DNA from: a virus
Strand: one strand, 5' to 3'
Virus record (IMG/VR): IMGVR_UViG_3300017917_002441
Span: 85,074 to 149,073 of that record
Length of the DNA stretch: 64,000 nt
Shown here: piece after piece, positions 34,852 to 37,836 of the stretch
Numbering within the stretch: position 1 is the first letter of the stretch
Layout of the letters: every line of letters begins with the position of its first letter
Translations under genes and position numbers: made by a program
Notes under the pieces: generated by a model
What the model saw: the letters and a program-made list of their open reading frames with translations, nothing else
Told to the model about the DNA's origin: nothing
The model's database searches: none

Positions 34852-35333
34852 ATGAAATCCAGATCAATCTGGATTCTATGATAACTGATTACAGTAGTGA
34901 TTACAGTACTATCAGGATGTCTGATTACAATATAAACATTTCAGACACCATTACACTGAGCAACACCGGTGCTATCAGCGGAGCAATGGGCTCCACATAC
35001 CAATACCCCAATGTTACAATTGCCAACGGTGCTTATACCACCAGCGCATTTGGAAACGTGTGGGGAGGAAATCCACTAACAGTTGGCGGATCAGGACAAG
35101 TTGATCTCATAGGTGAAAATGCTGATATCAAAATCAACGGCAAAAGTTTGTGCAAAGCAATTGAAGCCATTGAACAACGACTCAACATACTCACCCCCAA
35201 CACCAAACTAGAAGCCGAGTGGGATGAACTACGCAAGCTAGGTGAACGCTATCGTGAGCTAGAAAAGCAGTGCTTGGAAAAAGCCGAGATGTGGAAAAAG
35301 CTCAAATCAATGCCCCCACCCGAAATAGTATGA
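34827..35333 (+). CDS. Hypothetical protein
   Basis: ADIKINGKSL...IEQRLNIL; coiled-coil C-terminus. Confidence 0.7.
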   Translation: MDSTETKLNEIQINLDSMITDYSSDYSTIRMSDYNINISDTITLSNTGAISGAMGSTYQYPNVTIANGAYTTSAFGNVWGGNPLTVGGSGQVDLIGENADIKINGKSLCKAIEAIEQRLNILTPNTKLEAEWDELRKLGERYRELEKQCLEKAEMWKKLKSMPPPEIV

Positions 35334-36127
35334 CACCAAAACAAAGAATCAAGCACATAGTTTCGTGGATACGGAATTATGCCAAACAAAACAAAATCCA
35401 AACCTTGGTTGTTGGAGTAAGTGGTGGTATTGATTCTGCTGTGGTGTCTGCGCTGTGTGCCAAAACTGGTATGAGAACTGTGGCACTGAGCATGCCTATT
35501 CGTCAAAGCGAACACACGCACAATCTAAGTCAACAACATTGTATGTGGTTGGTCAATCGCTACGAAAACGCAGAATTCCATAACATTGATCTTACGTCTA
35601 CATTCGAGCAATTTGAATCTGTTACAGTGCAGTTTGGTAATCAGCTGGCCTATGCAAACACTCGCAGTAGATTGCGAATGACAACACTGTATCAAGTAGC
35701 ACAGGCCATGGACGGTATTGTAGTGGGCACCGGCAACCGAGTAGAAGACTTTGGAGTAGGATTCTTTACCAAGTACGGCGATGGCGGCGTGGACATCAGC
35801 CCCATTGCTGACTGTTTGAAGACTGAAGTGTGGGACATGGGCCGCGAGCTAGGTGTGTTATCAAGCATTATTGATGCCGCACCCACTGATGGATTATGGG
35901 ACGATCAGCGCACTGACGAAGATCAAATTGGCATGACATATCCTGATCTAGAGCGTATGATGGCACTAGACTTCTTGAAACGTGCGCACATTGTAGATTC
36001 CAGTATGCCCGGGAGTGCCAAACTCAACGCAGATGACCGTAAAAAACTAAAACGCTACCAAGAACTACGTGCAAGAAACATGCACAAAATGATCCCAATA
36101 CCTATTTGTAAAATACCCAAGGAATAA
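35330..36127 (+). CDS. nadE: NH3-dependent NAD+ synthetase
   Basis: [35 protein letters not shown]...QRTDEDQIG. Confidence 0.95.
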
Positions 36128-36129
36128 AG

Positions 36130-36456
36130 ATGACTTATGTTGTAACCGAAAGCTGTGTCAAATGCAAGTACACCGACTGTGTAGATGTTTGCCCAGTTGA
36201 CTGTTTCAAAGCTGGACCAAACTTTCTTGTAATTGATCCCGACGAGTGCATTGATTGTGCTGTATGCGTAACCGAATGTCCGGTGAATGCTATCTACGCT
36301 GATCGAGATTTGCCCGAAAGCCAACGAGAATTTTTGGATATCAATGCTCGTCTAGCTAAAAACTGGCCTACAATTAGCAAAAAGATTGAGCCACTGCCTG
36401 ATGCAGAAGAGTGGGCTGGTGTAACTGAAAAACGACATTTAATCGATCAAGGTTGA
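36130..36456 (+). CDS. fdxA: FdxA-type ferredoxin
   Basis: [26 protein letters not shown]...[21 protein letters not shown]. Confidence 0.93.
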
Positions 36457-36574
36457 CAACTAACTCAAAAACTCATATAATAGTGTTTTATTAGTTAAAA
36501 CCCTATATTATGGAAAAAATTGAGTGTTTTGGCAGTTTTTTAACTGATGTAGACAGTCAGAAACTAAGTAAAAC

Positions 36575-36910
36575 TGAACGCGGAAAACAGATACCGGCGC
36601 TTTTTAAGCCATTGAAAGGGTCCGCGAACACTTGCAGTCCGTTGCAAGATAATAATAATAAAAATACGGACACACGTTGCAGTCTTGGAATTTCGTCCAA
36701 AATACCAAGGCTGTTCGAAAGAGGGCTTCGGAAATCCTCTTCGTTGACAAATGGTATTGATTCCGCCAAACACTGTAGCGATATGGACGCTGGTGGAATC
36801 CAAGAGAGTATGCCAAAGAAGGCCCGAGGTCTCGCACATAACTCTGATGTAAATATCACGTCAACGTCGTTCATCTTGAACAACTCCGGTGAACAGCTCA
36901 CTATTAGCTG
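36575..36910 (+). ncRNA. Candidate large structured ncRNA / 5' leader
   Basis: At least seven helices, two potential pseudoknots and a closing TGAAC/GTTCA stem; TAAGTA motif at 36565. Confidence 0.55.
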
Positions 36911-36923
36911 AAAGGAGAAAACG

Positions 36924-37490
36924 TTGAAACTAACTTCAATTAATCGTTTAGGCAGTACAGCCTTAAAGGTTCTAGGTTTCGTAGCTGTGATTTTTGTAGT
37001 GGCTTCTGCCACCAATGCCAAGCTTGATTCCCTGAAAGGAACCAATGAAGTAGCCCGCCAAGGATTTGTCAGTGTGGCGGATCGTACCAAGCAACTTGAG
37101 TGCTTGACACGTAACATTTATTGGGAAGCTGGCACAGAACCTTTTGAAGGCAAAGTAGCAGTGGCCCAAGTCACCTTGAACCGTGTGGAATCCGGTCGCT
37201 TTGCTCGTGACATTTGCGGTGTGGTATATCAAAAGAATGTGATCTATGACAAAGTAGTATGTCAGTTCTCATGGTTCTGTGATGGGTCCAGCAAGGTCCG
37301 ACCCATTTATCCAGCACACTGGAAAGAAGCCGAAGAAGTAGCCAAAAAGGTTCTACTAGAAGGCTTTAGACTACCCAGTCTCAAAGATGCTCTTTATTTC
37401 CATGCTGATTATGTAAACCCGCAATGGAAGAAAGAAAAAGTAGCAAAGTTTGGTCGACATATCTTTTACGCAGAACGGAATAACATATGA
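36924..37490 (+). CDS. Cell wall hydrolase (SleB/Hydrolase_2 family)
   Basis: CLTRNIYWEAGTE, AVAQVTLNRV, CQFSW, ALYFHADYVNPQW, GRHIFY; N-terminal TM; AAGGAG RBS. Confidence 0.92.
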   Translation: MKLTSINRLGSTALKVLGFVAVIFVVASATNAKLDSLKGTNEVARQGFVSVADRTKQLECLTRNIYWEAGTEPFEGKVAVAQVTLNRVESGRFARDICGVVYQKNVIYDKVVCQFSWFCDGSSKVRPIYPAHWKEAEEVAKKVLLEGFRLPSLKDALYFHADYVNPQWKKEKVAKFGRHIFYAERNNI

Positions 37491-37804
37491 TCATGCAACG
37501 ACTGGAAGAATTTAGAAAAAACTTCAACGTCTGGACCAACCAGCACTTCAGCAAAATTTCAGCTGATACCTTGGGCTGGTTGGCAGTGATATTGATTCAT
37601 TGCTCAACTATTCCCACCTTGTTGGCATTGCTGACAGGACTCAGCGACACTGTACCCAATTTGGACATTGTGATGTTTATGTGGGCTGGCTTGGTGTTGT
37701 TGTTTGCACGTGCTGTGGTGCTCAAAGATACTTTGAATATCATCACAGTGGGTGTGGGCTTTATTGCCCAAGCAGTGATCATGGCAATGATCTTGTTCAA
37801 ATAA
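37487..37804 (+). CDS. Three-TM membrane protein
   Basis: Hydrophobic helices; coupled to the hydrolase gene. Confidence 0.7.
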   Translation: MIMQRLEEFRKNFNVWTNQHFSKISADTLGWLAVILIHCSTIPTLLALLTGLSDTVPNLDIVMFMWAGLVLLFARAVVLKDTLNIITVGVGFIAQAVIMAMILFK

Positions 37805-37807
37805 TGC

Positions 37808-37836
37808 TTGACCAAAAATCCCCATTTTGCTATAAT
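37808..37836 (+). promoter_or_regulatory. Early promoter cassette
   Basis: TTGACCAAAAATCCCCATTTTGCTATAAT. Confidence 0.75.

Follow-up and report, generated by a model that had tools for sequence, protein, structure and literature searches.

The window examined here, that is, the whole stretch of 64,000 nucleotides (nt) at positions 85,074 to 149,073 of IMG/VR virus record IMGVR_UViG_3300017917_002441, is the end 64 kb of a 149-kb viral contig with a completeness estimate of 44%. Within it, a gap between a ferredoxin gene and the gene for a SleB-like cell-wall hydrolase has been confirmed to carry a conserved structured RNA of ~350-430 nt, encoded on the + strand and placed at the Shine-Dalgarno sequence (SD) of the hydrolase gene. 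The locus is arranged as follows:

35270-36127, + strand: NAD synthase gene
36130-36456, + strand: 7Fe-type ferredoxin gene
36453-36458 and 36476-36481, + strand: sigma-70-type promoter, TTGACA and TATAAT with a 17-nt spacer, 12 of 12 consensus positions
36457-36923, + strand: non-coding gap of 467 nt between the ferredoxin gene and the SleB-like gene
36510-36911, + strand: open reading frame (ORF) of 133 codons that overlaps the RNA
36924-37490, + strand: SleB-like cell-wall hydrolase gene with a TTG start (Pfam Hydrolase_2, E = 1.3e-25; PHROG endolysin family, E = 3.9e-20)
37487-37804, + strand (ORF coordinates): gene for a protein of 105 amino acids with three hydrophobic segments recognised by eye

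Judged from their sequences, the SleB-like protein and the 105-amino-acid product look like an endolysin-holin pair. The ATG of the 105-codon gene shares 4 nt with the SleB stop codon (ATGA, 37487-37490), and the gene is syntenic in most relatives. Its product belongs to no Pfam or PHROG family, and a holin-like nature of this membrane protein is only inferred. The N-terminus of the SleB-like protein (36924-37040), read by eye, is weakly hydrophobic, rich in Gly, Ala and Val, and similar to a signal-anchor-release segment.

An earlier reading of this DNA (the sequence-only reading) had proposed that the gap holds a highly structured RNA and had listed eleven pairings for it, ten of which are supported by comparison with relatives, the closing helix being the one that failed. 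The + strand of 36457-36930 folds with a z-score of -4.85 relative to dinucleotide shuffles, none of 100 shuffles being as good, while the - strand of the same region reaches -2.05. A model of 83 pairs in 15 helices was built by hand from the alignment and tested by pair counting. In an alignment of 32 distinct sequences produced with MAFFT and not fitted to the structure (A2), standard pairs occupy 88.7% of 2107 pair cells versus 30-41% in slid controls, 44 of the 83 pairs are changed on both sides (13-20 in the controls), and the covariation score is 0.220 (at most 0.074 in the controls). In the shuffle control (79.3% paired), 0 of 500 shuffles matched the observed value. A second alignment (A4), comprising 90 distinct sequences of the 3' domain, was aligned to the model and is hence biased towards it; here 93% of the cells are paired (up to 93.3%) versus 27-51% in slid controls, with covariation scores of 0.29-0.30 versus at most 0.063. 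Covariation among homologues is, according to both comparisons, strong.

The G-U pairs that had been noticed on the + strand proved to be a conserved feature, as G-U is invariant at two pairs in 32 of 32 sequences and additional G-U exchanges occur elsewhere in the structure; the functional strand is therefore the + strand. These pairs also bear on the idea that the gap is a DNA-level element, such as a replication origin, a packaging site or a protein-binding array, with its hairpins formed in DNA. Inverted repeats and conserved promoter-like boxes would suit such an element, which is nevertheless barely credible, given that both the invariant and the many other G-U pairs are found on the + strand only, that the folding z-score differs between the strands, and that pseudoknots and kissing loops are unexpected in duplex DNA.

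The structure model consists of a 5' segment, two domains and a pseudoknotted 3' end that reaches the SD:

36483-36563, + strand: 5' leader segment with a conserved UAUAUUAUGG(N)AAAAA motif and an ATG at 36510
36544-36547/36557-36560, + strand: variable hairpin Ha, 57.5% paired on the MAFFT alignment, 5 of 5 pairs changing on both sides
36564-36570, + strand: CTAAGTA, in which TAAGTA is invariant in 32 of 32 aligned members
36579-36671, + strand: domain 1, with helices Hc and Hd and pseudoknot PK1
36579-36584/36621-36626, + strand: helix Hc, 97.9% paired, 7 of 7 pairs changing on both sides
36596-36598/36608-36610, + strand: helix Hd, within Hc
36631-36636/36643-36648, + strand: stem B of PK1, 90.7% paired
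36637-36642/36666-36671, + strand: stem A of PK1, in which the loop pairs with the downstream segment
36679-36688/36705-36714, + strand: hairpin I1, GCAGTCTTGG/CCAAGGCTGT, in long forms only, with compensatory changes in L247-L249
36694-36699, + strand: loop CGUCCA of I1, kissing the Hh loop UGGACG at 36784-36789
36719-36866, + strand: core of domain 2
36719-36725/36735-36741, + strand: helix Hf with loop CUUCGGAAA, 99.8% paired (90 sequences), running straight into Hg
36742-36748/36860-36866, + strand: long-range helix Hg, 92.3% paired (90 sequences), enclosing Hh, Hi1, Hi2 and a pyrimidine-rich linker
36759-36768/36791-36800, + strand: helix Hh, GATTCCGCCA/TGGTGGAATC, 82.3% paired, up to 6 pair types per position
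36805-36809/36841-36845, + strand: helix Hi1, supported in long forms only, by eye
36820-36823/36829-36832, + strand: helix Hi2, 100% paired, invariant
36869-36873/36877-36881, + strand: hairpin Hj, GUUCA/UGAAC, 96.8-99.2% paired, with C-G, U-A and U-G exchanges
36884-36887, + strand: proposed anti-SD CUCC, complementary to the SD GGAG at 36914-36917
36888-36891/36899-36902, + strand: stem X of PK2, GGUG/CACU, 97-100% paired
36894-36898/36906-36910, + strand: stem Y of PK2, 5 of 5 pairs covarying
36914-36917, + strand: SD GGAG, preceded by AAA and followed by the TTG start at 36924

The alignments of the variable regions are imperfect, and Ha, I1 and Hi1 are the weakest helices; the 5' leader segment with Ha is the weakest part of the model. 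In domain 1, the helix proposed as GCGGA/TCCGC (Hc) covaries in relatives, where CGCGGA/UCCGCG of the window is replaced by GGUGGA/UCCAC or by GAGUAGA/UCUACUC. The stem CTTGCA/TGCAAG, whose loop GTCCGT had been matched to ACGGAC, corresponds to PK1, and an equivalent pseudoknot made of other sequences exists in relatives: depending on the subgroup, its stem A is ACGG/CCGU, CCGG/CCGG, AUUGG/CCAAU or CUGGA/UCCAG. In the subgroup of the window the order is permuted, with GUCCGU in the loop and ACGGAC downstream, and L247 shows a wobble-compatible change in this stem. Three members (L084, L090 and L105) represent natural minimal forms, which keep the 5' motif, CUAAGUA and the entire domain 2 while having no domain 1, and domain 2 is therefore the core of the element.

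Comparison with relatives likewise upholds the pairings proposed for Hf (AGAGG/CCTCT), Hg (CGTTGAC/GTCAACG), Hh and I1. The pairing AGAGT/ACTCT (Hi1) stands in part, being recognised by eye in the long forms and finding no support outside them. The short forms are the majority, and they have a shorter Hh region ending in GNGAAACAAA, no GGAC and, in the alignments, no I1 hairpin. All of the long forms (19 of 19 distinct sequences) combine an I1 hairpin that has GUCC in its loop with an Hh loop that contains GGAC. At the pair next to this kissing contact, the window has C-G, a divergent subgroup U-G and the bulk of the long forms U-A, with one mismatch. The window's nearest relatives, three contigs (L247-L249) found via the ORF product, carry U-A where the window has C-G in the predicted long-range pairing of CGTCCA with TGGACG, that is, a two-sided change in the kissing pair, together with compensatory changes in Hc, I1, Hh and stem Y.

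At the 3' end, the closing helix of TGAAC at 36575 with GTTCA at 36869 was not borne out: this GTTCA forms the local, covarying hairpin Hj with the TGAAC at 36877-36881. The hairpin CAGCT/AGCTG proposed next to the SD holds, and is CAACC/GGUUG in the nearest relatives. Beyond the pairings proposed originally, stem X and a CUCC:GGAG anti-SD helix have been added. One pair of stem X is C-G in 53 sequences and G-C in 19, although X is absent from the model to which these were aligned, and stems X and Y together form an H-type pseudoknot, PK2, next to the SD. At most a few nt separate the end of PK2 from the SD in the aligned members. The anti-SD helix is paired in 96.4% of the cells (46-62% in slid controls), its sole changes being C to U and wobble-compatible, and it is also contained in the minimum free energy structure predicted by RNAfold for the window.

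Several other contacts were considered and rejected. A long-range ACGGA/UCCG helix closing domain 2, predicted by RNAalifold, was not adopted on account of its flanking pair, which is broken in the long forms, and is also disfavoured by the persistence of UCCG in members without ACGG. The Hj loop (AUCCU) was dropped as an anti-SD because its cognate pairing is hardly better than the non-cognate one (-3.4 vs -2.8 kcal/mol), and the nearest relatives of the window have UGCU or UACU in its place. A CGGAG of domain 1, regarded as a possible anti-anti-SD, shows no consistent covariation by eye.

The element defines a family with a narrow distribution. A search with the SleB protein gave 80 viral loci, the 13 closest having 68-81% identity, and in these 13 a gap of ~370-390 nt accompanies the hydrolase gene irrespective of the gene upstream. 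A 31-nt core motif retrieved 40 viral contigs and a 22-nt core motif at least 120 metagenome contigs, some of them from named freshwater lake samples, e.g., Trout Bog. Sequences retrieved in this manner share the core motif identically by construction; TCGGAAA is still invariant in the 13 loci found independently via the hydrolase protein. A covariance model of the 3' domain (R1) matches 100 of the 100 sources searched, the window scoring 139 bits (E = 1e-41). The genomes that harbour the element are those of uncultured jumbo phages of freshwater lakes, of 320-340 kb, and it is single-copy in five phage records, including a complete genome of 337,119 bp with terminal repeats.

The gene that follows the element is constant in kind. 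A SleB-like gene lies directly downstream in 94 of the 98 distinct motif-bearing sequences with enough downstream DNA, and the remaining four are chance matches in bacterial genomes, so that every real element that could be tested (94 of 94) has such a gene after it. The adjacency holds even where the gene is a paralogue of ~35% identity or is duplicated. In L088 and L099, the RNA is followed by this divergent SleB-like paralogue, ahead of the orthologous SleB; in L111 and L113, the paralogue (~35% identity) is the sole SleB copy and the gene for the 105-amino-acid membrane protein is absent. Regarding the pattern matches in bacterial genomes, four of the five (L122-L125) were discarded as chance and only L126 is real. 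This sequence (CAITCX010000170.1, 2370 bp), assigned to a Dehalococcoidia metagenome-assembled genome, carries the full element (181 bits) and is probably a misbinned phage fragment.

No match to the gap was found by blastn among 50,697 phage records, and no close SleB homologue exists among cultured phages, in which all homologues have less than 60% identity; the absence of a match in cultured phages means that there is no annotated example of the RNA. At the more distant SleB loci (L015-L081), neither nhmmer nor covariance model R1 detected the element, and the RNA family is limited to one phage clade. Literature searches found no description of this RNA. The opinion that it resembles no recognisable known RNA agrees with the covariance models of Rfam 15 (4227 models), which gave no match at gathering score in the whole window, only chance-level matches (E 1.8-8.8) in the region 36300-37100, and nothing overlapping the element at E <= 1 in four relatives (L098, L089, L086 and L022). 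The set includes GOLLD, ROOL, HEARO, OLE, ydaO, cobalamin, lysine, T-box, tmRNA, RNase P, 6S and the self-cleaving ribozymes.

The promoter upstream of the element is also a shared feature. Its -35 box overlaps the ferredoxin stop codon, and the sigma-70 promoter aligns in most relatives; TTGAC-N17-19-TANNNT occurs upstream of 59 of the 99 sequences with enough upstream DNA, four of these being chance genome matches. No terminator is predicted on the + strand between this promoter and the hydrolase gene. A second near-consensus sigma-70 promoter was observed at 37808-37836 (TTGACC, 17 nt, TG-TATAAT; 11 of 12 positions), just after the two-gene cassette, which is therefore bracketed by strong promoters; further genes follow downstream.

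The TAAGTA that had been taken for a late-like motif is invariant in the family, and a promoter role for it is suggestive only. TAAGTA is under-represented in the window (14 sites vs 25 expected), and in 5 of these 14 an SD and start codon follow at a distance of 15-90 nt, against a background of 8.6% (P = 0.005); the AT-rich composition of intergenic DNA confounds this test, which is why the result is no more than suggestive. The same spacing is seen at 10 of 21 TAAATA sites and 14 of 34 TATAAT sites, far above this background, and these two are candidates for the late and early promoter boxes of the phage. CTAAGTA may be either a single-stranded RNA motif or a phage-specific promoter. In L017, a distance of 63 nt separates CTAAGTA from the downstream SD of SleB, and a second TAAGTA comes after a sigma-70-like promoter and before a small gene, an arrangement that fits TAAGTA as a phage promoter element. 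If CTAAGTA were a phage promoter, late transcripts would begin at Hc, the first well-supported helix, and would not contain the AUG of the ORF.

The ORF at 36510-36911 raises the question of whether the gap encodes a protein, the structure of its RNA being incidental. This explanation draws on the gene callers, which annotate a hypothetical protein in eight close relatives, and on the frame itself, since 53 of 82 members (~65%) retain an uninterrupted stretch of 90 codons or more (92-146 codons). However, the protein-level conservation that had been singled out for checking is lacking. Over 14 phage pairs, the ratio of nonsynonymous to synonymous changes (pN/pS) is 0.93 in the frame, like the 0.92 and 0.86 of the other frames, versus 0.19 for SleB in the same pairs. 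No codon periodicity or excess of changes at the third position is seen in the ORF, the entropy of the three codon positions being 0.39/0.51/0.40, compared with 0.35/0.24/1.00 in SleB. The element changes at 0.15-0.16 per site at all codon positions, the nominally synonymous ones included, which is 3.6 times slower than the 0.575 of synonymous sites in SleB. The product has no Pfam or PHROG family; its only homologues are the eight close hypothetical proteins, also without family, and a tblastn-style retrieval in viral contigs found no relatives of it. In addition, the frame is broken or shifted in ~35% of the members, which come from several subgroups, and compensatory changes of pairs run throughout the element. 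According to these sequence comparisons, the ORF is probably not a protein gene, the protein-coding explanation being very improbable, and we conclude that selection acts on the nucleotides of the element and not on its amino acids.

A related proposal does not depend on the product. Ribosomes starting at the AUG near the 5' end would read the frame of 107-138 codons, its product being irrelevant, and would stop in or just past PK2, opening the anti-SD clamp and delivering the hydrolase by translational coupling, with the RNA structure setting the pace or the frequency of that coupling. A pN/pS of ~1 suits such a frame, as does its being open in those 53 of 82 members; in L104 the long frame is kept even though it reads the core in another phase, and the stops fall inside PK2 or, in L247-L249, 7 nt past the SleB start. 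Against these observations stand the broken frame of about a third of the members and the AUG itself, which has no SD before it and is ACG or ACA in 6 of 32 members (three of which, L086, L093 and L094, have an in-frame AUG 9 nt downstream). It would also be absent from late transcripts if CTAAGTA were their promoter. Rare new stops are only mildly fewer in this phase (15 columns, vs 22 and 28 in the others), and the other two phases hold ancestral conserved stops, while the ORF phase has none; the openness can therefore be largely ancestral and conserved at the nucleotide level. Indels that preserve the frame were discarded as coding evidence, the argument being circular (8 of 16 distinct length classes are in phase). 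Taken together, a translated leader of this kind seems quite unlikely.

The sequence-only reading had left two possibilities, a large non-coding RNA (ncRNA) and a regulator that acts in cis on the hydrolase and its membrane partner, and the evidence leans to the latter without settling the matter. As a stand-alone ncRNA, the element would act in trans or as an RNA-only assembly or scaffold; it would have no more in common with the hydrolase gene than the promoter and a constant neighbourhood, and the hydrolase mRNA would be a read-through product. Such a role would fit a large, multi-domain RNA with pseudoknots and exchangeable tertiary contacts, as in the 'ornate' RNAs, with a consensus promoter of its own and with invariant loops (CUUCGGAAA, CUAAGUA and GAAACAAA) that suggest the binding of a partner. 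However, there is no terminator or other 3' end signal before the SD, which in the aligned members lies right next to the last pseudoknot; the element is single-copy and never found away from a SleB-like gene; and the corresponding position in a sister clade is taken by another leader. A stand-alone RNA is, in view of these features, an unlikely explanation.

This other leader (type 2, ~310 nt) precedes the orthologous SleB in the sister clade and differs from the one described so far (type 1). It has been located in four sequences:

L020, 2665-2975: type 2 leader
L021, 2674-2975: type 2 leader
L022, 2668-2970: type 2 leader
L023, 2680-3010: type 2 leader

In these four sequences, RNAalifold predicts 63 pairs, 10 of them with compensatory changes, and a CUCC upstream of a covarying hairpin pairs with the GGAG of the SD on its other side. 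The 5' part of the type 2 leader (UAUAUAUUA..., CUAAGAUAGUAG) is faintly similar to that of type 1. Its presence at the same position is counted in favour of cis action of type 1. Other loci (L015, L017 at 2500-2900, L018 and L024) have only short leaders upstream of SleB, of ~60-130 nt in length.

The favoured interpretation, and a probable one, is that the element is a new family of large cis-acting leader RNAs on the mRNA of the lysis cassette, which would gate translation of the SleB endolysin and of the overlapping membrane-protein gene. It builds on the observed family, structure, strand, fixed position at the SD and absence of protein-level selection, and the argument for cis action is positional, as the element never occurs without a SleB-like gene directly after it. 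We infer that the output would be sequestration of the SD and that some kind of trigger exists. In the proposed mechanism, transcription would start at the consensus sigma-70 promoter, perhaps with a second start at CTAAGTA as an internal phage promoter, and the ~435-nt leader would fold into two domains, domain 1 being dispensable in some phages and domain 2 universal. Domain 2 would end in PK2, clamped by the CUCC:GGAG helix at the hydrolase SD, and in the long forms the extra hairpin I1 would kiss the enlarged Hh loop. The folded body would hold the SD in the clamp, so that the weak TTG start would go unused, until a signal, be it a metabolite, a protein or an altered fold or transcript, released it; this release would set the timing of the synthesis of the endolysin and of the coupled membrane protein.

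Several points weigh against the gate. The anti-SD helix is merely 3-4 bp long and, because the SD cannot covary, rests on conservation and wobble-compatible changes. No ligand or protein partner was found, and neither were two conserved folds that exclude each other, by which a switch would be recognised. Most riboswitches are far smaller than this RNA, and a strong promoter of its own would also be natural for a stand-alone RNA. The tertiary fold is ambiguous, since the CGGA motifs of the Hf loop, PK1 and the domain 1 junction could all pair with UCCG. Finally, the frequently open frame is not explained by the leader model.

Among known systems, the closest in logic is a phage one. Translation of the T4 lysozyme gene e (and of soc and 49) is said to have been found by McPheeters et al. 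in 1986 to be controlled by mRNA secondary structure. As in gene e, transcripts from an upstream promoter would bury the ribosome-binding site of a lysis enzyme in RNA structure, and timing would be set at translation initiation. However, T4 uses one small hairpin, opened by late transcripts that start inside it, while the leader described here has ~350-430 nt, two domains and three pseudoknot-type contacts, and no conserved promoter was found between its anti-SD and SD. An H-type pseudoknot at the SD as a translational expression platform is reminiscent of the preQ1-II, SAM-II and fluoride riboswitches. In those RNAs, of 50-100 nt, the pseudoknot itself binds the ligand; here there is no Rfam match to them, and the pseudoknot is the end piece of a far larger fold. 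The ydaO/yuaA riboswitch, which responds to cyclic di-AMP, is also a pseudoknotted leader often placed before cell-wall hydrolase genes. The likeness ends there, as there is no Rfam match at E <= 10, no pseudo-two-fold symmetry is seen, and size and conserved sequences differ.

In size (several hundred nt), number of helices, pseudoknots, covariation and occurrence in lake metagenomes or phages, the element is similar to GOLLD, ROOL, HEARO and OLE. GOLLD and ROOL often occur in phages or prophages, and large RNAs of this kind are the subject of a cryo-electron microscopy preprint (10.1101/2024.12.08.627333). Unlike the present RNA, which is always at the start of a hydrolase gene, these RNAs are not fixed to the SD of one gene, and there is no Rfam match to any of them. 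A peripheral loop-loop contact that some members have and others have replaced or lost is shared with the lysine and cobalamin riboswitches, RNase P and group I introns, a likeness that is purely architectural, with no sequence or model match. The element is consequently filed under none of the known systems compared.

The timing of phage lysis is usually explained by holin proteins, and control of endolysins at the RNA level is, to our knowledge, known only in the form of small hairpins (T4 gene e and the lambda S sdi element). Here, a large and ornate leader with three pseudoknot-type contacts, invariant loops and exchangeable peripheral modules stands before an endolysin gene in more than 100 contigs. 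The family is well suited to work on RNA structure, owing to its deep covariation, its minimal forms without domain 1, and its long and short forms that exchange a kissing loop. Although the phages are uncultured, the consensus sigma-70 promoter should allow reporter tests in E. coli. The fact that both clades keep a large conserved RNA at this place points to an unrecognised layer of lysis control. A bolder proposal, held with low confidence, is that the element represents a new class of large sensor RNAs, either a riboswitch-like receptor or an RNA-protein switch, that times the lysis of jumbo phages by an intracellular signal of the infected cell, such as its metabolic state or a nucleotide second messenger. 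If this were true, the timing of lysis in these phages would be partly a decision taken at the RNA level.

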